Positions 2,874 through 26,127 of a DNA stretch of 64,000 nucleotides are shown one piece after another. The notes below the pieces were generated by a model. The model ran no database searches. It was given only the letters and a program-made list of their open reading frames with translations, and was not told the origin of the DNA. A program made the position numbers and the translations under genes. Numbering within the stretch: the stretch's first letter is position 1; every line of letters begins with the position of its first letter. The stretch is from NCBI GenBank assembly GCA_963717535.1, contig OY970344.1:35306-99305 (forward strand). The letters run 5' to 3'. The stretch comes from an uncultured Verrucomicrobiae bacterium. Its GTDB lineage: Bacteria > Acidobacteriota > Terriglobia > Terriglobales > Acidobacteriaceae.

Positions 2874-3830
2874 ATGTCGCAGAGCACGTTGCAGGTCGGC
2901 CAACTCGTCGCGGCGCAAAGCGAGAGGCGCTACGGTGTCATTGAACTTTCAGTCGGGGGCCAACCTTACAGAGTTCCCCTCTGGTTGATCAACGGAGACG
3001 AGACGGGTCCGACCCTGGTTGTGACGGGCGGGGTACACGGCGCGGAATACGCGAGCATTGCGGCAGCGCTTGACCTTGGTCGCTCGCTGGATCCCAAGGG
3101 CCTGCGCGGAAGGGTGATCGTGGTGCCGGTGGTCAACCTGCCCGGCTTTGCGGCTCGGTCGATTTACGTCTGTCCTCTTGATGGGAAGAATCCGAATCGA
3201 GTGTTTCCTGGCGATGCAGGCGGGAGCGGCTCGGAGCAGATCGCGGACTGGGTCTTTCGCAACGTGATTTCTCAAGCGGATTACTACGTGGACTTGCACG
3301 GCGGCGATCTGATTGAGGCACTCGTCCCCTTCACCATCTTCTTCCGCTCCGGCAACGAGCAGGTAGACGCGGTCTCGCTCGAGATGGCAAAGGCCTTTGG
3401 GATCCACTACCTGGTGCGCAGTGAAACTCCGGGGTCCACCATCTCCGCCGCATCCCGCGCTGGGATCCCCTCCATCCTTACGGAGTCAGGTGGGCAGGGG
3501 GTATGGACGGCAGAACAGGTCGCCGACCATACCAACGGACTTCAACGCTTGATGAGCTATCTCAAGATGGTCCCGGATCCTGCCCCGGAGCCAACTGCGT
3601 TCACGCTCTTGGAGCAGTTTCTTTGGGGACGCAGTGAGCATGAGGGCTTGTGGTATCCGCAGGTGTCCGTGGGTGAGAGGGTTCGTTCCGGTCAGGAACT
3701 CGGATGCATCAAGGACTGGGAAGGCAATGTGCTACAGAGAAGCCTCAGTCCTGAAAACGGCACTGTGCTCTTCCTGGTGTCGTCGTTGGCGATCCATGCG
3801 GGCGAGCCTCTCTTCGCCGTGGGCGCATGA
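2874..3830 (+). CDS. Succinylglutamate desuccinylase/aspartoacylase-family (M14-like) Zn hydrolase
   Basis: GGVHGAEY, NPNRVFPG, DLHGG and ESGG motifs. C-terminal lipoyl-like hairpin (VSVGERVRSGQELG). Confidence 0.9.
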   Translation: MSQSTLQVGQLVAAQSERRYGVIELSVGGQPYRVPLWLINGDETGPTLVVTGGVHGAEYASIAAALDLGRSLDPKGLRGRVIVVPVVNLPGFAARSIYVCPLDGKNPNRVFPGDAGGSGSEQIADWVFRNVISQADYYVDLHGGDLIEALVPFTIFFRSGNEQVDAVSLEMAKAFGIHYLVRSETPGSTISAASRAGIPSILTESGGQGVWTAEQVADHTNGLQRLMSYLKMVPDPAPEPTAFTLLEQFLWGRSEHEGLWYPQVSVGERVRSGQELGCIKDWEGNVLQRSLSPENGTVLFLVSSLAIHAGEPLFAVGA

Positions 3831-3924
3831 CGACGCTAGAGCTGTTTCTCACCTGGCACTTGGCGTGTCGCGGGACGATTACGGATGGGGCTTGGATCCG
3901 GCAATTCGGGGCACACTATAGAGC

Positions 3925-5100
3925 ATGCGGAAACCGCTTCTGGCGTTGACAGCTGCTGCGTTCGGGATTGGGACGTCGGAGTTCATTATCGTCGGCCTGC
4001 TGCCTACGCTTGCTCATGACTTTTCGGTGAGCATACCGAAAGCGGGCATTCTGGTGACGGCGTATGCGCTTTCGGTGACGATTGGCTCGCCGGTGGTGGC
4101 GCTGGCGTTGGGGCGGGTGGACCGGAAGACATCGTTGCTGCTGCTGATGGGGATGTTTGCCTTAGGGAACACCCTGTGCGCGCTGGCGCCGAGCTACGGC
4201 CTGCTGATCGGCGCACGGATTCTGACGGCGCTTTGCCATGGAGCGTTTTTTGGGATTGGCAGTGTGGTGGCGGCCAATCTTGTGCCGCGGCAGGAACGGG
4301 CGCAGGCCATTGCGCTGATGTTTACCGGGCTGACACTTGCCAACATCCTGGGCGTGCCGGCGGGGACGGCGCTGGGGTTGCGGCTGGGGTGGAGGGCGGC
4401 ATTCTGGGCTTTGGTGCCGATTGGTCTGGTCGCGATCGGTCTGCTCTGGCGGCTGATTCCGCATCAGCCTGCGCAGCCGACGCCGCTGCGCGGGGAACTG
4501 CACCAGGTGCTGAAGGCGCCGGTTCTGTTGGTGCTTGGGATTAGCACGCTGTCTTCGGTTTCGTTGTTTTGCGTGTTCACGTATGTCTCGCCGATGCTGG
4601 CGGGGATCACTCATCTTTCGCCGGACGCTGTGACCTGGGCGCTGGTGGCGTTTGGGACGGGGATTACTGTGGGGAACCTGCTGGGCGGGCGGCTGGGGGA
4701 CTGGCGGCAGATGGGCACAGTGATCGGCGCGTTTACGACGCTGACCGTGGTTCTGGTGTTGCTGCCGTTGCTGTTGATTCGTCCGGCCTGGGCGATGGTT
4801 GGGGTGTTTGTTTGGGGGCTGGTTCACTTCTCCGGAGGCATACCCTTGCAGACCCGGGTGGTGGAGAAGGCTAAGGGCGCGAACCTGGCGTCCACGTTGA
4901 ATCAGAGTGCGTTCAACCTGGGGAATGCGTTGGGTGCGAGCCTGGGTGGGATCCTGCTTACCCGCGGGCTTGGCTACGGCGTGCTCCCGTATGCGTCGGC
5001 TGCGGTGGCCGTGGTGGCTACTTTGCTGAGCCTGGTCGCGCTGTGGGTGGAGCGCAAGTACCCCCACGAGAGCAGCACGGACTTTTTCCAGGCGATCTGA
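3925..5100 (+). CDS. MFS transporter (DHA1, YdhP/NepI-like)
   Basis: About 12 hydrophobic helices. GTSEFIIVGLLP start motif, GRVDRK loop, HGAFFGIG, ANILGVPAG, NQSAFNLGNALG. Confidence 0.92.
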   Translation: MRKPLLALTAAAFGIGTSEFIIVGLLPTLAHDFSVSIPKAGILVTAYALSVTIGSPVVALALGRVDRKTSLLLLMGMFALGNTLCALAPSYGLLIGARILTALCHGAFFGIGSVVAANLVPRQERAQAIALMFTGLTLANILGVPAGTALGLRLGWRAAFWALVPIGLVAIGLLWRLIPHQPAQPTPLRGELHQVLKAPVLLVLGISTLSSVSLFCVFTYVSPMLAGITHLSPDAVTWALVAFGTGITVGNLLGGRLGDWRQMGTVIGAFTTLTVVLVLLPLLLIRPAWAMVGVFVWGLVHFSGGIPLQTRVVEKAKGANLASTLNQSAFNLGNALGASLGGILLTRGLGYGVLPYASAAVAVVATLLSLVALWVERKYPHESSTDFFQAI

Positions 5101-5176: not shown

Positions 5177-7579
5177 CTAGTCCCCGAGGGTGGCTAGCTC
5201 ATCGGCGACTTCGCGCTCCTGGTGGCGGTTGATCCCCTGCAGGATGGGCGAGTGCTGGGTGAGGCTGCCGGAGGTGAAGAGGGTGTCCCGGCTGGGGAGG
5301 ATGAGGTCCTTGCGGCTGTCGTCTATTTGCACGAGGCCGCTGGCTGCGGGGGTGATGTGCTGATCGTTGCCGCTGAGGAGTTGAAGGCGCCGGAGATTGT
5401 TGTAGCCGGGGACGAGGCGTTGGATCTCGTCGAGGATGGCGAAGGGGTCAAAGGGCGAGACTTTGGGCTCGAGGTTGTTGGCCGTGAGCCAGACGGCGTG
5501 GCGATCGGCCTCGCCGGCCTGGGCGCCTCGGGACTGGCCGAGGTCGGAGCGTACGCCGGTCGTCGTGCCTCGGCCAAAGGGGACGAGGGATTTGGCGGGG
5601 TGGCCCATCTTGTCGGCTAGGCGGACGATGAGCTCGAAGTCGGTGCGGGTGCCGGGTTTGTCGGCGGCCTTTTGGATGAGCTGTAGGTCGCCATAGGAGT
5701 TGGTGACGGAGCCGGATTTCTCGTAAAGGCTGGCCGCGGGGAGGACTACGTCGGCGAGTTGGGCGGTCTCTGTGAGGAAGAGATCCTGGACGATGGTGAA
5801 GGTATTGTTGAGGGCTGCGGGGTCGATGCTGAAGCGGGCAATGGGGTTCGCGCCGACGACGTAAAGGGCCGCAAGTGAGCCGGATTGGGCGGCGTCGAAC
5901 ATGGCGAGCAGGTCGAGGCCGGGCTGTTGCGGTGTGTTGAACTCGGCGGCTACCGAGGAGCCGGTAAGGGGCTGATAGCCGGGGAGCATGTCGGGGAGGA
6001 GGCCCATGTCGCTGGCGCCGCGGGAGTTGACGTAGTCGGCGTTGAGGGCGAACTTGGCGTTGGGGAGGGTCTGGAGGAGACGTGTGAGTTCGCCGTCACG
6101 GACTTCGTTGCCGATGAGGACGACGAGGTTAGGCTCGTTGAGGACGGCTTCACGGAAGGTGGAGAGCTGGTCGGCCTGGGCGATGACTGAGGCTGCAGAG
6201 GCTTCCGCGTCGTTGCCGGCGAGGTAGCTGATGAAGCTGCCGTAGCCGAACGGCGCGACCTGGACAAAGGCTTTGGCCTGACGCCGGAGCTTGATCTCGT
6301 CGGTGTTGGCGATGTAGACCTTGGCGCGGGTGAGGCGGACGTTGGTGCGGATGTTCCAGCCCGTGAGCGGGGCTTGTTGCGTCGGGTCGCCGCCGATGAG
6401 GAGCAGGGCGGGGGCCGAGGCGACGTCTCGTTGGGAGGCGTAGCGGCCTGCGGTGCCCTGGAGTGTCGTGGCGAGGGTAACGTAATCGGCGGTGCGGTGG
6501 TGATCGATGTTGTTCGTGCCGAGGACCGTGCGGGCGAACTTCTGGAGGAGGTAGCTTTCCTCGTTGGTGGTGCGGTTGGAGCCGATAACGCCGATGCTGT
6601 TAGCGCCTCGCGTGTCGCGGATCTCGCGGAGGCGGTCGCCGGCGAAGGTGAGGGCTTCTTCCCACGAGACGGCGGTCAGGGGAGAGCTCTTGCCCCCCTT
6701 GCGAATCATAGGCTTGGTGAGGCGGTCGGGCTCGTTGTTGAAGTCGAAGGCGTAGCGGCCCTTGTTGCAGAGGAAGTCGCCGTTGATGCCCGATTTATCG
6801 CGGTTGTCGCCGCGCATGATGACGGAGCCTTCGGCGGTGGTCCGGACGCCGAGAGTGGTTTTGCAGCCGTCACCGCAGTGCGTGCAGATCGTGGAGGTGT
6901 GGTTCATCTCCCAGGGGCGAGTCTTGTAGCGATACGGGCCCGGGAGGAGCGCGCCTACGGGGCAGGCGTCGATGCACATGCCGCACTGCTCGCAGTCAAT
7001 GCGTGGAAGGTCGTCGGGGGAGAGGGACGCGGGGACGTTGGGGGCGATGACCGACGCGGAGCCGCGGTTCTGGATGCCGAGCGCGAAGACGTCCATGCCT
7101 TCGCCGCACATGCGGACGCAGCGGTAGCAGAGGATGCAGCGGGGGCGGTCGAAGAAGACGACCGGCGACCATTGCTGCTCTTCGCGGTGATTCTTGGCCT
7201 CAGCGTAGAGGCTTTCACCGGCGCCGTACTTGAAGGTCATGTCCTGCAGTTCGCATTGGCCGCCAGCATCGCACACGGGGCAGTCGAGTGGATGATTGCC
7301 GAGCAGGAGCTGGAGCGTGGACTTGCGGGCCTGGGCGATCTCGGGCGTCTCGGTCTGGACGATCATGCCCTCGGCGACCGGGGTGGTGCAGGCGGTCTGC
7401 AGCTTGGGCATCTTCTCGATGCGGACGACGCACATGCGGCAGGCAGCTTGCAGCGAGAGGCCGGGGTAGTAGCAGAAGGCGGGGATCTCGATGCCGGCGG
7501 CCTTGCAGGCGTCGATGAGCAGGGTGCCCGCAGGGGCGGTGAGCTTTTTGCCGTCTACGGTGAAGGTTACGTCGGGCAT
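5177..7579 (-). CDS. nuoG: NADH-quinone oxidoreductase subunit G
   Basis: FCY..ACRMC (N1b), HPLDCPVCDAGGQCELQD (N5), CILCYRCVRMC and CEQCGMCIDACPVGAL (N4), CTHCGDGC...LCNKGR (N7-type). Molybdopterin-oxidoreductase-like C-terminal region. Confidence 0.96.
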   Translation of the reverse strand: MPDVTFTVDGKKLTAPAGTLLIDACKAAGIEIPAFCYYPGLSLQAACRMCVVRIEKMPKLQTACTTPVAEGMIVQTETPEIAQARKSTLQLLLGNHPLDCPVCDAGGQCELQDMTFKYGAGESLYAEAKNHREEQQWSPVVFFDRPRCILCYRCVRMCGEGMDVFALGIQNRGSASVIAPNVPASLSPDDLPRIDCEQCGMCIDACPVGALLPGPYRYKTRPWEMNHTSTICTHCGDGCKTTLGVRTTAEGSVIMRGDNRDKSGINGDFLCNKGRYAFDFNNEPDRLTKPMIRKGGKSSPLTAVSWEEALTFAGDRLREIRDTRGANSIGVIGSNRTTNEESYLLQKFARTVLGTNNIDHHRTADYVTLATTLQGTAGRYASQRDVASAPALLLIGGDPTQQAPLTGWNIRTNVRLTRAKVYIANTDEIKLRRQAKAFVQVAPFGYGSFISYLAGNDAEASAASVIAQADQLSTFREAVLNEPNLVVLIGNEVRDGELTRLLQTLPNAKFALNADYVNSRGASDMGLLPDMLPGYQPLTGSSVAAEFNTPQQPGLDLLAMFDAAQSGSLAALYVVGANPIARFSIDPAALNNTFTIVQDLFLTETAQLADVVLPAASLYEKSGSVTNSYGDLQLIQKAADKPGTRTDFELIVRLADKMGHPAKSLVPFGRGTTTGVRSDLGQSRGAQAGEADRHAVWLTANNLEPKVSPFDPFAILDEIQRLVPGYNNLRRLQLLSGNDQHITPAASGLVQIDDSRKDLILPSRDTLFTSGSLTQHSPILQGINRHQEREVADELATLGD

Positions 7580-20390: not shown

Positions 20391-21213
20391 ATGAGCAATG
20401 CGGTGATGGAGCGGGCTGAAGCGGTGAGCATGACTTCGGGTGCGGATGACCTGGTGATTGCAGGACGGCGCTTCCGGTCGCGTCTGATTGTTGGGACTGG
20501 AAAGTATAAGGATGGGCCGGAGACGAAGGCTGCGATTGAGGCTTCCGGGGCCGAGATGGTCACGGTAGCGGTGCGGCGCGTGAATCTCGACCGCTCGCAG
20601 GAAAGTCTGCTGGACTTACATCGATCCGGTGCGGTACTTCCTGCTGCCCAATACAGCTGGATGCTACACGGCCGAGGAGGCAATCCGGGCCGCCAGACTG
20701 GCGCGCGAGGTCGGGCTGTCCGACTGGGTAAAGATCGAGGTCATCGGCGATCAGGCGACCCTTTACCCCGACGTGCAGGCTACCGTTGAGGCGACAAGAG
20801 TTCTTGTGAAAGAGGGATTTACTGTTCTGCCGTATACCACGGATGACATCGTGTTTGCGAAGCGGCTGATCGACGTCGGTGCGGCAGCGGTGATGCCGCT
20901 TGGCGCGCCGATCGGGACGGGGTTAGGGATTGCGAACTCATACACGCTCCGGATGATGCGGGAGCTGATCACGGAGGTCCCGCTGGTCGTCGATGCAGGG
21001 CTGGGTACCGCGAGCGATGCGGCCCTTGCGATGGAGATGGGCTTCGATGCGGTGCTGTTGAATACCGCAATGGCAGGCGCAAAGAACCCTGTGCTGATGA
21101 GTTCAGCGATGCGCAAGGGGACGGAGGCTGGGCGGGAGGCGTTCCTGGCCGGCCGGATGCCGAAGAAGCTGTATGCGACTGCGAGTTCGCCGTTGGAGGG
21201 GATCTCGCGGTAG
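20391..21213 (+). CDS. thiG: Thiazole synthase, split by a +1 frameshift at about 20616 (probable sequence error)
   Basis: Frame 1: [10 protein letters not shown]...EMVTVAVRR. Frame 2: [39 protein letters not shown]. Removing one T from GACTTAC restores [16 protein letters not shown]. Confidence 0.93.
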
Positions 21214-21222
21214 GGCTGCGCG

Positions 21223-21741
21223 CTAATCCAGGGAGGCGAAGGTCTCTGTCAGGTCGACGTGTATTGGGGTGTTCGGCACAGTGAGTTGGGTTGGATCGGC
21301 TTCATGGAGGCCCGTGGCGTTGTAGGTGAAGGCGGCTCGGTAGATGGGATCGATGAGCCAGATGTTCTCGACACCCATAGCGAGGTAATCGGCGAGAACG
21401 AGCTTGGTGCGGCTGAAGCGGTCATCCGGAGAGAGCACCTCGACACAGATGAGTGGAGGAGTGGTGGTGACGGCCTCGCGGGGTGCGTCCGCACGGAGGA
21501 TGGCTACGTCACAGACGCGGACCTGGTTGGGGCGAACGCGGATGCGTTGTTCTACGACGGGGTCGGTGGCCCACTGCTTCGCATTCAGGGTGAAGATGTG
21601 GAAGAGCCAGCCTTGGATCTTGCCGTGTTCGTAGGTGCCCACGTTTCGCGCCTCGAGTCCCCCGTCCACGAAGTCGAGATCCGGCTTGTAACTGGTGTGA
21701 AGGTACTGGTCAATGGAAAGCGGGAGGGGAGCGGTCGCCAT
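21223..21741 (-). CDS. Uma2/DUF820 family restriction-endonuclease-like protein
   Basis: YKPDLDFVDG.LE, DVAIL...PLICVEVLSPDD and YLAMGVENIWLIDP. Confidence 0.88.
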   Translation of the reverse strand: MATAPLPLSIDQYLHTSYKPDLDFVDGGLEARNVGTYEHGKIQGWLFHIFTLNAKQWATDPVVEQRIRVRPNQVRVCDVAILRADAPREAVTTTPPLICVEVLSPDDRFSRTKLVLADYLAMGVENIWLIDPIYRAAFTYNATGLHEADPTQLTVPNTPIHVDLTETFASLD

Positions 21742-21783: not shown

Positions 21784-23265
21784 CTAAGCCACAACACCCG
21801 CGAGACTCGATCGGAGTGGGGCGAGGCGCGTCTGTTCGAGGTCGTCGCGGTAGAAGAGGTTGTAGGTGTCGAAGGGGATGAGGCGCTGGGCGTCGGGGTG
21901 GGCGATGTGGATGCAGGTCTTGCGGATGGAGCGCAGGTCGAAGCTGTCGGCGTCGATGAACTGAACGATGAGGATGCGGAAGAGGTTTTGGTACGAGAGG
22001 TTTTTGGGACTCAGGACCTGTGGCAGGCAGCATAGGAGATCGCGAAGGGTGCTGGCCTGGGACTGCGGCGAGTGATTGGTGGAAAAGAGCTTGAAGAGCC
22101 CTTCTTTCACCGGGTTTGCGGCGGCTTTGGCGAGCAACTCCGGGTTCCGGGCGAGGTGCGCGCGGATGCCGCTGTCCTGTTCATAGATGATGGTGTTGGC
22201 CGCGCCGTTGATGAGTACCTCGGGCGGAATGAGGCTGGTGAGTGGGGTGACGTTGCCTGCGAGTTTCAGGGCGTAGCCCATGGCGAGCGAGTCGGGGTGG
22301 CACGGAACGGGGATGATGTCTTCGGGCTTGAAGACGGAGGTCTGCTCGAGGATGCGACGCCGGACTTCGGTGAGGGTGAGTCGGTGCTGGGCGGGGTCGT
22401 AGCCGCCGAGGCGCCCGGCCTGTTGAACCGGCTGAAAGGTGACGCCCCGGATGCAGGGCTGTGTGAGAGCGAAGTCGACTATGGCGCCGAGTTCGGTGTC
22501 GTTGACGCCGCGCTCGACGGTGACGACGAGGGTCGTGGAGATGCCGAGTTCGTTGAGGCGGGCGAGGGCACGTTCGCGGATGCTCCGCAGGTCGGCGCCG
22601 CGGAGCTGCATCAGCGGATCGCGTTTGAGAGAGTCGAACTGGAGGTAGAGTTCGAAGCGGGGCATGTACGTGGCGAGGCGCTGGGCAAAGGCCGCGTCGG
22701 TGGCGATACGGATGCCGTTGGTGTTGACCATCAGGTGCTTGATGGGGCGCTGTTTGGCGGCGTCGAGGACCTCGAAGAACTGCGGATGGATGGTGGGTTC
22801 GCCGCCGGAGATCTGGACGATGTCAGGCTCCATCTCGTTGCGGACGATGGTGTCGAGCATGCGTTCGATCTGCTCGAGTGAACGATGCGTGGTGCGATGG
22901 GTGCCGCTTGAGGCGTAGCAGATGGGGCAGTCGAGGTTGCAGACGTCGGTGATCTCCAGCAGCGTGAGGCAGGAGTGCTGCTCGTGGTCGGGGCAGAGGC
23001 CGCAGTCGTAGGGGCAGCCGTATTTCACGGGTGTGTTGAAGTGCTGCGGCATCTCGGGTGGCTTGAGGAAGACTTCGCGGCAGCGGCGGTAGTAGTCGAC
23101 GTCGTCGGCCATGAGGATGCGCTGGAAGCCGTGGGTGGGGCAGCGCTTGAGCATGTAGACGTGATTGTCTTCGAAGACGATCTTGGCATCGACGCGGCGG
23201 AAGCAGGTCGCGCAAAGGGAGACCGCGGTGTCGTAGAAGAGGTAGGGGCGGGTGGGTGCGGTCAT
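21784..23265 (-). CDS. Radical SAM enzyme of the tetraether synthase (Tes/GDGT-MAS, MJ0619)-like family
   Basis: From ATG 23265: rubredoxin-like C18xxC21...C42PTH45, auxiliary GC84PYDC88GLC91PDH, radical SAM C109NLDC113PIC116, SGGEPT, NTNG, YLQFD, and C-terminal KTCIHIAHPD..LIPFDTYN. Confidence 0.85.
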   Translation of the reverse strand: MTAPTRPYLFYDTAVSLCATCFRRVDAKIVFEDNHVYMLKRCPTHGFQRILMADDVDYYRRCREVFLKPPEMPQHFNTPVKYGCPYDCGLCPDHEQHSCLTLLEITDVCNLDCPICYASSGTHRTTHRSLEQIERMLDTIVRNEMEPDIVQISGGEPTIHPQFFEVLDAAKQRPIKHLMVNTNGIRIATDAAFAQRLATYMPRFELYLQFDSLKRDPLMQLRGADLRSIRERALARLNELGISTTLVVTVERGVNDTELGAIVDFALTQPCIRGVTFQPVQQAGRLGGYDPAQHRLTLTEVRRRILEQTSVFKPEDIIPVPCHPDSLAMGYALKLAGNVTPLTSLIPPEVLINGAANTIIYEQDSGIRAHLARNPELLAKAAANPVKEGLFKLFSTNHSPQSQASTLRDLLCCLPQVLSPKNLSYQNLFRILIVQFIDADSFDLRSIRKTCIHIAHPDAQRLIPFDTYNLFYRDDLEQTRLAPLRSSLAGVVA

Positions 23266-23501
23266 TTGCGTAATCGGCCCAAGATGAGTCGGGCAATAGA
23301 GAGCAGGCCGATGATGAGCATGCCGAGAAGGCTGCTCCAGAAGAGGAAGGCACCAGTTTCGATGACGATTGGGGATACGCGCTCGTTGCCGATCAGGACA
23401 CCGATGCCACATGTGCCCACGCCAATACCCGCACCAATGCTGCAAAGCACAAGCGCTTTGGTGAAGTCGACGGCATCACTCTTCGCGAACTGCTCGAACA
23501 T
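23262..23501 (-). CDS. Small two-helix membrane protein with G-T-C-G-I box (79 aa)
   Basis: Its TGA overlaps the radical SAM ATG (ATGA at 23262-23265). Two hydrophobic segments. Aligns with the 23564-23860 protein. Confidence 0.75.
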   Translation of the reverse strand: MFEQFAKSDAVDFTKALVLCSIGAGIGVGTCGIGVLIGNERVSPIVIETGAFLFWSSLLGMLIIGLLSIARLILGRLRK

Positions 23502-23563
23502 GGGTCAGCGTGGGCCTGGGGAGTTTGGTTGAGTATACGGACAGGAGGCGCCTAGGGTGTGAG

Positions 23564-23860
23564 TCATGGCTTGCCGGACTTGAATCTGTCGAGCAGGACT
23601 GCGGTCAGCAGGCCCAACAGCGAGAAGCAAAGGCCCAACGCACCGACAAGCATTCCAAGAAGCTCGAGCGCACCCAGTGCGACCAGCACCACGCCTGCCG
23701 TGTTCCTGGCGGGGCTCGAGGAGGTGCCTCCGCGGGCGAGCCCGAACAAGTTGAAGCTGACGTAGTTGATGCCGCAAAGGCCAGCGGAGATCAGGAGAGC
23801 GACACCGAACAGAGTCGTGGCGCGGAACCAGACGTCGCGGTCGGTCCTGGAGCTAGACAT
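23564..23860 (-). CDS. Small two-helix membrane protein with G-L-C-G-I box (98 aa)
   Basis: Its ATG overlaps the Lgt-like stop (ATGTCTAG). Two hydrophobic segments. Paralogous to the 23262-23501 protein. Confidence 0.78.
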   Translation of the reverse strand: MSSSRTDRDVWFRATTLFGVALLISAGLCGINYVSFNLFGLARGGTSSSPARNTAGVVLVALGALELLGMLVGALGLCFSLLGLLTAVLLDRFKSGKP

Positions 23861-24608
23861 GCTCCAGTCCTTGCTCGGCGACCGCAGCGCCCTCAGGGCG
23901 ACGATCCGAGACCGCGTTGAACGCGACGAAGAAGAGGCCGAGCAGGCAGCCCCATTGAATCAGGTTCATGCCAAGGACCGTGGGTTGAGGCTTCAGAAAA
24001 TCGATCAGCAGGCGCCAGGTAAGGTAGGCGGCCATGAAGAGGCGAAACGTCGAGCCGTTGGTGTGGGAACGGCGGCTCTGCCAGTGGAGAAGGCCAGCGA
24101 GTGTCGTGAGGAAGACAATCTCATAAAGCTGGGTGGGGTGTCGGGGGATGCCGTCACCGAAGTCGACAGCCCACGGGAGCGTGGTGGGTTTGCCGAACGT
24201 ATCGTCCGCCAAGCCGGCGAGAAAGCAGCCGATGCGGCCGACGGCCACGCCGATGCAGAGAGGGAGGGCGAAGAGGTCGCCCGTGCGGGTGCGGATGTTC
24301 TGGATCTTTTTGGTGAACTCGACGACCAGCCAGCCGCCAAGCAGGCCACCGACGATGGTCTTGCCACCGCCGGGCAGCAGGGCTTGCGTCCAGGTGATGT
24401 GAATGCGGGGTGCCTGCTCCAGTAGACCGAGCAGACGGCTGCCGAGGAGTGCGCCTACTGTTGCTGCGGCGATGATGCTCCAGCGCTGCTGCTGGCTGAG
24501 CACGTCGCCGGCGCTACGGCGTCGACGTTTGTAGGTCGCGAAGCCAAGTACGTAGCCCAGCGTCTCAAAAAGAGGGTGAAGCGCGGGAAGGGGGTGCAGG
24601 TGAAGCAC
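23853..24608 (-). CDS. Prolipoprotein diacylglyceryl transferase-like protein (divergent Lgt paralog)
   Basis: GRIGCF, FGKPTTLPWAVDF, RHPTQLYE and Y..WR..IDF. The SFHGG motif is replaced by KTIVGG. Confidence 0.88.
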   Translation of the reverse strand: MLHLHPLPALHPLFETLGYVLGFATYKRRRRSAGDVLSQQQRWSIIAAATVGALLGSRLLGLLEQAPRIHITWTQALLPGGGKTIVGGLLGGWLVVEFTKKIQNIRTRTGDLFALPLCIGVAVGRIGCFLAGLADDTFGKPTTLPWAVDFGDGIPRHPTQLYEIVFLTTLAGLLHWQSRRSHTNGSTFRLFMAAYLTWRLLIDFLKPQPTVLGMNLIQWGCLLGLFFVAFNAVSDRRPEGAAVAEQGLEHV

Positions 24609-24645: not shown

Positions 24646-26127
24646 TTACTCCAGCGCGTACATGGCGAGGCCGCTCAGGAGCTTGGGGTAGAAGTCGGTG
24701 GACTTCTGGGGCATGACTTCGAGGTTGAGGGAAATATCCCTCATCTGGTCGAGGGTCACTGGCTTGATTAAGAACGCAACATCGGCATTGCCGGAGCCAA
24801 CTTGTTGGAGAGCGTCGTGCGCTTCCCGGACGTAGCGGACATGGTTGCCGCCGCGAACAGTGTCCTCGTTGAGATGAAGGAGCTGTTCGAGGGCGAGTTT
24901 GTGTAGCTGGACGACGTTGAGCTGCTGCTGACGGGGGCTCAGGCCGGCGGTGAACTGGGCGACCGCGTCGGGCTTCGGCGTGAGCAGGAAGTCGCCGTCG
25001 CGGGTGGCCGCGATGAAAGCTACGCCGGCAGCCGCGTTCAGACGGTTGAGCAAGGTGCTTTCCCCGGGGAAGTGACCGTCGGGGGTCGAGGGGATCTCTT
25101 CGACTGTGAAAAGGCGCTCGGCTTGCTCCGCGAAGTGCCGCCCATTGAAGTGGGGCAGGCCGAAGACGACGCGGTGGGTGGGGAGGATGGTGATGCCGGG
25201 CGCGTCCATATTGACGAAGGTCATCATCATGGCTGCTTCAGGAAAGGGCGGTTGGGGCAGGCTTGTGCCTTCCTTGCCGGGGATCCCGGATTCACCACGC
25301 GGGCTCCGGGACGCAGTTCCCACCTCGTTGTTTAGCTCCGGTCGAGAGGACACATCCGAAAACGTGTCCGACAGCGGGGCGTCCTTGGGAGCAGGTGCGG
25401 GCTCGAAGCCTAGCTGTTGGGCTCGTTCGTGCATGTAGGAGACGGAGGTCTCATAGCGGTGGTGGCCGTCAGCAATGATGAGCGATTTGTCGCTCATGGT
25501 TTCAAGGATTTTGCCGATAAGGTCTGAGTCCGTCAATTTCCAGACGCGATGAACGACGTTATATTCGTCGATGATCTCGAGGTCGGCGGGCCGGGGCTGG
25601 CCTGTGGGGGAATCGAAGATGAGGTGTTCCGCAGTGAAGGAGGGGTCGGAGTAGAGCATGTAGATCTGTTCCGGATAGGCACGAATCGCTTTGAAGAGAG
25701 CGAGGCGGTCGGATTTGTGCTTGGGGAAGGTCTGCTCGTGGCGATAGACGACGTGTTCGGCGTAGTCATAGAGATGGCCCAAAGCGATGAAGCCGCGACG
25801 TTCGCGCACCTCGTCGGTGCCGGGCACGGTGTAGGTCTGCGAGTAACCGTAGAGCGCAGGCTCTGACTCTTCGCGAAGGATGCCTTCACTGCGCCAGGCG
25901 GCGAAGGTTGCCGCCGCGCGGGTGTAGACGTTTTTCTGATCATTGTCGGCGGGCTCACGCTTGCCCAGGACGACGCGGATGAGGTTGTAAGGGCTCTTCG
26001 CGTAGTAGTTCGCCTGCATTTCCGGCGAGATCTTGTCGTAGGGCTGAGTGACCACATCAGCCATGTTGACGCGGGCGGTGTCATAACGGAGGGCGCGGAA
26101 GGGATACAGGCGAGCCATTGATGTCAT
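24646..26127 (-). CDS. DUF1015 family protein
   Basis: PFRALRY, PYD.IS, RHEQT, IADGHHRYET, ILPTHR and MPQKSTDFYPKLLSGL. Confidence 0.88.
   Translation of the reverse strand: MTSMARLYPFRALRYDTARVNMADVVTQPYDKISPEMQANYYAKSPYNLIRVVLGKREPADNDQKNVYTRAAATFAAWRSEGILREESEPALYGYSQTYTVPGTDEVRERRGFIALGHLYDYAEHVVYRHEQTFPKHKSDRLALFKAIRAYPEQIYMLYSDPSFTAEHLIFDSPTGQPRPADLEIIDEYNVVHRVWKLTDSDLIGKILETMSDKSLIIADGHHRYETSVSYMHERAQQLGFEPAPAPKDAPLSDTFSDVSSRPELNNEVGTASRSPRGESGIPGKEGTSLPQPPFPEAAMMMTFVNMDAPGITILPTHRVVFGLPHFNGRHFAEQAERLFTVEEIPSTPDGHFPGESTLLNRLNAAAGVAFIAATRDGDFLLTPKPDAVAQFTAGLSPRQQQLNVVQLHKLALEQLLHLNEDTVRGGNHVRYVREAHDALQQVGSGNADVAFLIKPVTLDQMRDISLNLEVMPQKSTDFYPKLLSGLAMYALE

Follow-up and report, generated by a model that had tools for sequence, protein, structure and literature searches.

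Tandem cysteine microproteins between an Lgt paralog and a Tes-like radical SAM enzyme: possible uncleaved lipid acceptors in Acidobacteriota

Introduction

In the Lgt/LspA pathway, a lipoprotein precursor has a basic residue, then about 15 apolar residues, and an invariant cysteine on the periplasmic-leaflet side of the membrane. A similar layout is found in sA and sB, two microproteins encoded in tandem in a 64,000-nt stretch of DNA (hereafter the window; contig OY970344.1 of assembly GCA_963717535.1, from an uncultured bacterium of the Acidobacteriaceae), and a gene of the same Pfam family as Lgt (PF01790) lies immediately upstream of them. They differ from the known precursors in that the cysteine follows [FL]-G-L (A-G-L in sA and V-G-T in sB), with a bulky residue at position -1, and is located within the continuing helix of a predicted hairpin with two transmembrane (TM) helices. 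The enzyme also differs, being a divergent paralog (N146C, H103V, and Y26H) under the NCBIfam Lgt cut-offs.

The gene downstream of sB codes for an enzyme of the radical S-adenosylmethionine (SAM) type (rSAM) that shares three cofactor motifs with Tes/GDGT-MAS (PDB code: 7TOL), although it belongs to a separate clade, and its pairing with an Lgt paralog and cysteine-containing microproteins was not found reported for Tes. ‘Bacterial Tes homologs’ have been proposed for the synthesis of branched glycerol dialkyl glycerol tetraethers (brGDGT) or iso-diabolic acid (Zeng 2022, PMC8941075; Lloyd 2022, PMC9433317). They are the main candidates for this synthesis in Acidobacteriota, and one study made the case for another pathway to these lipids. 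In the literature searched, neither an Lgt paralog nor microproteins were found mentioned next to Tes-like rSAM enzymes, and as far as these searches showed, the three-part module is undescribed. Palaeotemperature and pH proxies in wide use are based on brGDGT and iso-diabolic acid lipids.

Two further systems share features with this locus. MYXO-CTERM and related cysteine sorting tags have an invariant cysteine by a TM helix, and lipidation outside the canonical lipobox, by a predicted Lgt-like step, has been proposed for them (PMC11980579). Unlike sA and sB, these tags are found at the C-termini of large secreted proteins, their topology is inverted, and a dedicated protease takes them off. 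They are not known to have a dedicated transferase gene, whereas here a candidate transferase is encoded next to proteins that are predicted to be hairpins as a whole. The precursors of ribosomally synthesised and post-translationally modified peptides (RiPPs) that lie beside rSAM maturases are likewise short, tandem, and hypervariable, with one conserved cysteine and translation coupled to the rSAM gene. In contrast, the products here are predicted to be integral membrane hairpins and the rSAM is of the lipid-coupling type; no SPASM or RRE domain was detected, and no protease or exporter is conserved nearby.

Results and Discussion

A conserved slot between the Lgt paralog and the rSAM gene

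GTDB species genomes were searched with the rSAM protein, which yielded 579 confirmed relatives, and the best 80 loci, mostly from Acidobacteriota, were analysed. In 70 of 81 loci, the gene directly upstream of rSAM encodes an Lgt paralog, and neighbour clustering of the related loci gave no conserved neighbour besides these two. The two are separated by a spacer that either measures about 50 bp or is occupied by one to three membrane open reading frames (ORFs) on the same strand, nearly all with a cysteine that closes the first apolar helix. By an automatic rule, ORFs with such a cysteine were found between the two genes in 39 loci, downstream of the rSAM gene in 17, and in both places in none, while the motif occurs in 1.5% of background ORFs. 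When 14 apparent negatives were read by eye, ten more proved to have a membrane ORF with the cysteine, which brings the count to 66 of 70 loci. In the reverse direction, all six microprotein homologues that were taken from the protein database and looked up lie between PF01790 and Zn_ribbon_HMPTM/Radical_SAM genes, usually as two or three tandem small genes. The link to an Lgt paralog that a first-pass annotation had proposed for sA and sB therefore holds both ways. The same annotation had overlooked the rSAM enzyme, which is a conserved part of the module and whose start overlaps the stop of sB. Overall, the module consists of an Lgt paralog, one to three small cysteine-containing membrane proteins as the variable component, and a Tes/GDGT-MAS-like rSAM.

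In loci with an empty spacer, a different family follows the rSAM gene, with one to three copies of 90-120 aa and three TM helices (3-TM). Its motif is K-G-[LI]-x-I...LL[NS]-x-x-C (also written ...FLLN-A-x-C); the invariant cysteine is located in the last helix, usually with K or R, and sometimes with Q or T, at position -16. Homology between this family and sA/sB was considered and rejected, as hhalign gave probabilities of 0.3-2.5%, no better than the reversed control. No locus has both families. Since the cysteine has the same placement in unrelated families, it looks as if they converged on a functional requirement.

Other accessory proteins were also observed. In a third accessory type (about 160-185 aa), the N-terminus bears a hydrophobic segment, a soluble domain is present, and the helix at the C-terminus closes with a near-canonical lipobox-like L-A-S-C, A-A-A-C, or I-G-A-C. 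Some Acidobacteriota slots hold proteins of 270-400 aa with six or seven TM helices and no Pfam match, in which the first helix ends in L-[SA]-[LM]-C (e.g. MERWAANTLRTLGIILTAG...LLLSLCAA). The only well-flanked loci without a cysteine-containing accessory ORF are L059 and L064, both from metagenome-assembled genomes of Elusimicrobiota.

sA and sB are genuine genes

Both ORFs that the first-pass annotation had reported as tandem microproteins are present on the minus strand (Table 1). The GC content at third codon positions is 0.81 in sA and 0.70 in sB, against 0.77-0.86 in neighbouring genes and 0.62 in the window; such high values, like those of the flanking genes, support the coding status of both. 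Homologues of sA and sB have been called by independent gene predictors. Hidden Markov models (HMMs) of the A-type subfamily, to which sA belongs, and of the B-type subfamily, which includes sB, were built with the window excluded; they score sA at 61.5 bits and sB at 33.4 bits, and neither score was reached by any of 2000 shuffles.

The proportion of non-synonymous differences between microprotein and nearest orthologue (pN 0.365) is lower than that of synonymous ones (pS 0.653). For sB, dN/dS to the nearest orthologue is about 0.33, compared with 0.05 for the rSAM gene; the first-pass annotation had named a value near 1 as a refuting outcome, and this ratio is lower, but it is unreliable because dS is saturated (1.5 or more). 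At the amino acid level, the microproteins are 38-47% identical to their orthologues (sA 43-47%; sB 43% to P0015, which is encoded in the same slot, where its gene likewise overlaps the rSAM gene by ATGA), whereas the neighbouring rSAM enzyme is 87% identical. Protein-level evolution is about six times faster in the microproteins than in the module enzymes; a few positions stay fixed while the rest changes rapidly.

Chance open frames in GC-rich DNA could in principle give rise to such ORFs. The high-GC DNA of the window yields many long spurious ORFs on both strands, a search of RNA runs gave no expression support, and sB has no clear Shine-Dalgarno sequence. However, 449 homologous clusters share the invariant cysteine and the conserved hairpin architecture, the slot is retained although the nucleotide sequence is saturated, the third codon positions are those of coding genes, and the profile scores are far beyond those of shuffles. 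An origin of sA and sB as chance frames is effectively refuted; both are genuine microproteins, paralogous to each other and rapidly evolving.

sA and sB are paralogs

The first-pass annotation had aligned sA and sB by eye without gaps at an offset of two residues. This alignment was reproduced, with identities at 8 of 25 positions and a BLOSUM62 score of 31. The best 25-residue window score was matched by 89 of 1000 shuffles that preserve the hydrophobic segment (p ~0.09), and BLASTP of sA against sB was not significant (E = 0.9); therefore, the pairwise data cannot establish homology. The pattern [KR]-x13-G-x-C-G appears by shuffling in 3.2% (sA) and 1.9% (sB) of cases, and the A-type HMM alone misses sB (0.2 bits). 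Comparison of the A-type and B-type profiles by hhalign gave a probability of 95.9% (E = 6e-9, score 49.3) over 70 columns, with C29 of sA paired with C31 of sB. In the controls, the reversed profile scored 12.8, and 200 block-preserving column shuffles had a mean of 13.8 +/- 2.7 and a maximum of 26.7. Judged by their shared register and by the comparison of the two profiles, sA and sB are paralogous and represent two subfamilies of one unannotated family, in the register that was first proposed.

The pentapeptide LLGML, found at residues 67-71 of sA and 58-62 of sB, had been offered as a further feature shared in the second helix. It was rejected as evidence of homology: 4% of shuffles yield a common 5-mer, and neither MAFFT nor hhalign brings the two copies into register. 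The shared LLGML is probably a coincidence.

A near-invariant cysteine without a canonical lipobox

Database searches with single sequences found one homologue for sA and none for sB, so the family had to be queried with an alignment. When a profile was run against 1.84 billion cluster representatives, 449 clusters (50% identity) were obtained at E <= 1e-3. None of the members has a Pfam domain or an informative name, and they are annotated only as hypothetical proteins; a new microprotein family without a Pfam model is thereby defined.

Across 26 Acidobacteriaceae relatives from syntenic loci, G27 and C29 are the sole invariant columns. The cysteine is kept in 140 of 141 new cluster representatives, the lone exception being a degenerate fused duplicate, so the motif noticed in the first-pass annotation defines the family and the loss of cysteine that would have counted against it was not seen. 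Among the 140 representatives that keep the cysteine, K or R is found exactly at -16 in 124 (and in about 25 of 27 Acidobacteriaceae copies), Gly at -2 in 129, Leu at -1 in 118, and Gly at +1 in 85; G, A, or S at -1 occurs in five. In sA, the key residues are R13 (-16), G27, C29, G30, N32, and E66, in the context G-L-C-G-I. Those of sB are K15 (-16), G29, and C31, in the context G-T-C-G-I, and its subfamily motif is G-F/V-G-T-C-G.

When compared with what is expected of a lipoprotein precursor, sA and sB have the n- and h-regions, that is, a basic residue, an apolar stretch of 15 residues (about 7-22 are expected), and the cysteine. They lack the canonical lipobox [LVI]-[ASTVI]-[GAS]-C, and the deviation noted in the first-pass annotation extends to the family at position -1. 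Nor does the cysteine stand at the end of the hydrophobic segment as residue +1 of an exported mature domain. The AlphaFold2 model of sA has helices at residues 8-43 and 52-95 (pLDDT 72.6), and in the family the apolar run beyond the cysteine is about 8.6 residues long, followed by a loop and then the second TM helix. The mean number of K and R is 3.0 at the N-terminus, 1.1 in the loop, and 3.3 at the C-terminus (n = 170); the termini together exceed the loop in 170 of 170 sequences, in agreement with the positive-inside rule. The family is therefore predicted to consist of two-helix membrane hairpins with both termini inside (N-in/C-in). Such a topology would place the cysteine in the outer leaflet, about two-thirds up helix 1 and 16 residues past the basic residue on its cytoplasmic side, and thereby on the side of the Lgt active site (PMC4728403). 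Because the helix runs past the cysteine and a second TM helix follows, cleavage of a signal peptide is not expected. The resemblance to a type II signal peptide seen in the first-pass annotation accordingly does not extend to cleavage, as in the structure model about nine apolar residues continue the helix.

Another possibility is that sA and sB are ordinary lipoproteins, in which housekeeping Lgt lipidates the cysteine, LspA removes residues 1-28 (sA) or 1-30 (sB), and the neighbouring Lgt paralog is unrelated. It would account for the basic n-region and for the 15-residue apolar stretch before a cysteine at position 29 or 31. The usual Leu and the rarity of G, A, or S at -1, the helix that continues past the cysteine, and the second TM helix do not fit. 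The same holds for the synteny with the Lgt paralog, which is strict in both directions, and for the 3-TM proteins of other lineages, whose last helix, at a great distance from the N-terminus, holds the equivalent cysteine. Taken together, these features make an ordinary lipoprotein very improbable.

Copy number also appears to turn over in the family. P0005 (155 aa), P0068 (163 aa), and P0187 (115 aa) include fused two-unit proteins and a degenerate duplicate in which the cysteine is changed to Phe. In the A-type copy of L012 (4446-4691), the second helix is lost after the cysteine motif, apparently by frameshift or truncation.

The radical SAM enzyme

The rSAM protein matches the GDGT-MAS/Tes structure 7TOL at E = 2.4e-66. 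Its Pfam domains are Zn_ribbon_HMPTM, Radical_SAM, and a weak Fer4_12, and it scores under the NCBIfam cut-offs for TrsS (NF045646; 308 vs 490) and Tes (NF045702; 262 vs 450), which places it in a separate clade of ‘bacterial Tes homologs’. The cofactor residues, compared with the reference motifs of Tes (Lloyd 2022, PMC9433317), are invariant in 81 sequences: C18/C21/C42/H45 in a rubredoxin-type CX2CX20CX2H motif, C84/C88/C91 with H94/H97 in an N-terminal auxiliary CX3CX2C+His motif, and C109/C113/C116 in the radical SAM CX3CX2C motif. No TM segment was predicted, and the enzyme appears to be soluble. A SPASM, twitch, or RRE domain was sought with Pfam and NCBIfam models, and none was detected. 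Several of the Acidobacteriota classes that bear this rSAM presumably correspond to the subdivisions reported to make membrane-spanning lipids.

The position of one to three tandem, hypervariable small genes with one invariant cysteine beside an rSAM gene, to which they seem to be translationally coupled, is also what would be expected if sA and sB were RiPP-like substrates whose cysteine is modified by rSAM (e.g. to a thioether), with the Lgt-like protein as an auxiliary. Such a role is improbable here. The rSAM belongs to the Tes/GDGT-MAS lineage of lipid C-C coupling and has the same cofactor motifs, the domain search just described was negative, no protease or exporter is conserved nearby, and a cysteine in the outer leaflet, as the topology predicts, would be distant from a cytoplasmic enzyme.

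The Lgt paralog

Pfam LGT (PF01790) matches residues 14-230 of the Lgt paralog with 101 bits (cut-off 24.9). The protein scores under every NCBIfam Lgt cut-off, with 56.9 vs 118.9 and 64.7 vs 334 for the TIGR00544 and PRK00052 models. When 64 such paralogs were compared with E. coli Lgt, the equivalents of R143, R239, H196, Y201, and Y235 were invariant and that of E202 was kept in 63. N146 is replaced by Cys in all 64 (Cys128 here), H103 of the HGGL motif by Val in 61, and Y26 by His in 60, and the E151/head region is shortened and remodelled. The signature of the paralog family is G-K-T-x-V-G-G ... G-R-I-G-C-F. In E. coli Lgt, mutants at H103, Y26, R143, and E151 are inactive, the HGGL motif was proposed as the binding site of the lipobox peptide (Mao 2016, PMC4728403), and N146 takes part in the hydrogen-bond network of the cavity.

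The residue pattern fits an enzyme that keeps the diacylglycerol/phosphatidylglycerol pocket and has a changed acceptor side, as would suit a different acceptor. Since residues that are essential in E. coli Lgt have been replaced, canonical Lgt chemistry cannot be assumed, and the altered residues may also leave room for a different chemistry. The replacement of H103, Y26, and N146 had escaped the first-pass annotation. Covariation of Lgt-paralog residues with the motif type of the partner was considered but set aside, as it is confounded by phylogeny. The Lgt paralogs of L059 and L064 (~4310-5008) are the most divergent, with 37-40% identity, Leu at the position of H103, and extra Cys residues after the GC motif.

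These replacements also bear on whether sA and sB might be adaptors or other non-substrate subunits, which would dock the Lgt paralog, tether the soluble rSAM, or do both, while their cysteine would stay unlipidated and pair with Cys128 in a disulfide or thiol relay, or have another structural or redox role. In all 64 paralogs, the catalytic cavity has a cysteine in place of N146, the essential H103 and Y26 are replaced, the rSAM has no TM segment of its own and its start overlaps the stop of sB, and the microproteins evolve fast except at a few positions. Against such a role, a basic residue followed by 15 apolar residues and a cysteine preceded by small residues has the look of an Lgt-type acceptor, two accessory families unrelated in sequence converge on the same cysteine placement, and one to three copies per locus would be unusual for a stoichiometric subunit. 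We regard a non-substrate role as unlikely, though by no means negligible.

A possible role as uncleaved lipid acceptors

The sequence comparisons show that sA and sB are coding, homologous genes with an invariant cysteine, and they also reveal the topology signal, the conserved gene order, and which residues the paralog keeps or replaces; every chemical step of the following scheme we infer. As read from the sequences, sA and sB may be dedicated, uncleaved acceptors or partners of the Lgt paralog, to which we assign a probability of roughly 0.45, slightly below even. In this scheme, the paralog would keep the diacylglycerol/phosphatidylglycerol pocket with a remodelled acceptor-binding region and would recognise [IVL]-[SA]-[FL]-G-L-C-G inside the membrane. 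It could then move a diacylglyceryl (or related lipid) unit onto the thiol of the microprotein cysteine. As no signal peptide would be cleaved, the product would be an internally S-lipidated TM protein. The soluble rSAM partner might subsequently act on the hydrocarbon tails of the tethered lipid or of neighbouring lipids.

Several points weigh against sA and sB as lipid acceptors. With H103, Y26, and N146 replaced and E151 remodelled, the paralog may catalyse something else or nothing, and the cysteine of the microproteins might rather form a pair with the invariant Cys128 of the paralog. A lipid tethered by a thioether in the outer leaflet is not obviously within reach of a cytoplasmic rSAM. 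The roughly sixfold faster evolution of the microproteins suits a loosely constrained adaptor equally well as a substrate. Four loci (L059, L064, L069, and L073) have no cysteine-containing accessory ORF; they comprise the two from Elusimicrobiota, one short contig, and L073, whose contig ends at the rSAM gene. Finally, RNA runs carrying the sequence of the locus were looked for and none was found.

A more specific version of the acceptor scheme, which we consider doubtful, is that the microprotein serves as a covalent lipid carrier, in which the paralog would load diacylglyceryl on the cysteine and the Tes-like rSAM would couple the tethered acyl tails tail-to-tail to yield chains of the iso-diabolic acid type. 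If this were true, the module would provide the missing acidobacterial route to brGDGT precursors or, alternatively, a new class of protein anchored by a membrane-spanning or macrocyclic lipid. The acceptor scheme, if true, would also widen lipoprotein biology: an Lgt-type enzyme would be dedicated to an acceptor motif of its own and would act on an internal cysteine of a TM protein, without cleavage of a signal peptide. In any case, one large clade of Tes homologs, with its 579 confirmed matches in GTDB species genomes, is almost always paired with a remodelled Lgt paralog and cysteine-containing membrane proteins, and the module is a concrete three-gene unit with which to address the question of membrane-spanning lipids.

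Gene arrangement and neighbouring genes

On the minus strand, the order of the module genes is Lgt paralog, sA, sB, and rSAM, preceded by a DUF1015 gene and followed by a Uma2-family gene (Table 1). The ATGA overlap of four nucleotides between the sB-type gene and the rSAM gene recurs in locus L083, and this overlap suggests that sB and the rSAM gene are translationally coupled.

Table 1. Features of the module and its surroundings. Coordinates here and in the text are positions within the window unless a locus handle (L) precedes them; all module genes are on the minus strand.
Feature	Coordinates	Strand	Description
DUF1015 gene	24646-26127	-	493 aa; directly upstream of Lgt paralog; outside module
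Lgt paralog	23853-24608	-	251 aa; PF01790
Cys128 codon of Lgt paralog	24225-24227	-	
Overlap of Lgt paralog stop and sA ATG	23853-23860	-	8 nt; read from sequence
sA microprotein, A-type subfamily	23564-23860	-	98 aa; ORF read
sA motif segment R13...C29-G-I	23768-23824	-	Basic residue, 15 apolar/small residues, Cys
sA Cys29 codon TGC	23774-23776	-	
sB microprotein, B-type subfamily	23262-23501	-	79 aa; ORF read
sB motif segment K15...C31-G-I	23403-23459	-	In register with sA (MAFFT, hhalign)
sB Cys31 codon TGT	23409-23411	-	
ATGA overlap of sB stop and rSAM start	23262-23265	-	Read from sequence
rSAM gene	21784-23265	-	493 aa; Zn_ribbon_HMPTM + Radical_SAM
Uma2-family gene, putative endonuclease	21223-21741	-	172 aa; directly downstream of rSAM gene
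Downstream 3-TM family, examples	L013:6412-6720, 6669-7040; L025:1597-1917, 1964-2302; L038:6453-7432		Three copies in L038
Third accessory type	L049:6398-6883; L057:6431-6982; L035 ~3440-3900; L055 ~6400-6900		
Slot proteins with 6-7 TM helices	L041:4137-4949; L071:4158-4991; L072:4118-4951; L056:2874-3818, 3867-4847; L030 ~3560-4800		

DUF1015 was searched for in all 81 related loci and was absent from every one, which places it outside the module. The neighbour clustering of related loci revealed no conserved Uma2-like gene. Both genes look like lineage-specific neighbours.

A longer reading of the rSAM gene, with 553 aa from a TTG start (21784-23445, minus strand), overlaps sB and was rejected, as homology sets in only with the ATG codon of position 23265. 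Long shadow ORFs, antisense or out of frame, lie across the rSAM gene, sB, and sA at 22072-22881 (+), 22975-23532 (+), 23510-23920 (+), and 21784-23445 (-); conservation of the real genes is the sole reason why relatives have equivalents of them. Further downstream, a ThiG ORF (20629-21213, plus strand) matches only positions 62-247 of the 247 profile positions; either some 60 N-terminal residues are lacking in its frame, through a possible frameshift or truncation, or the true start belongs to another reading.

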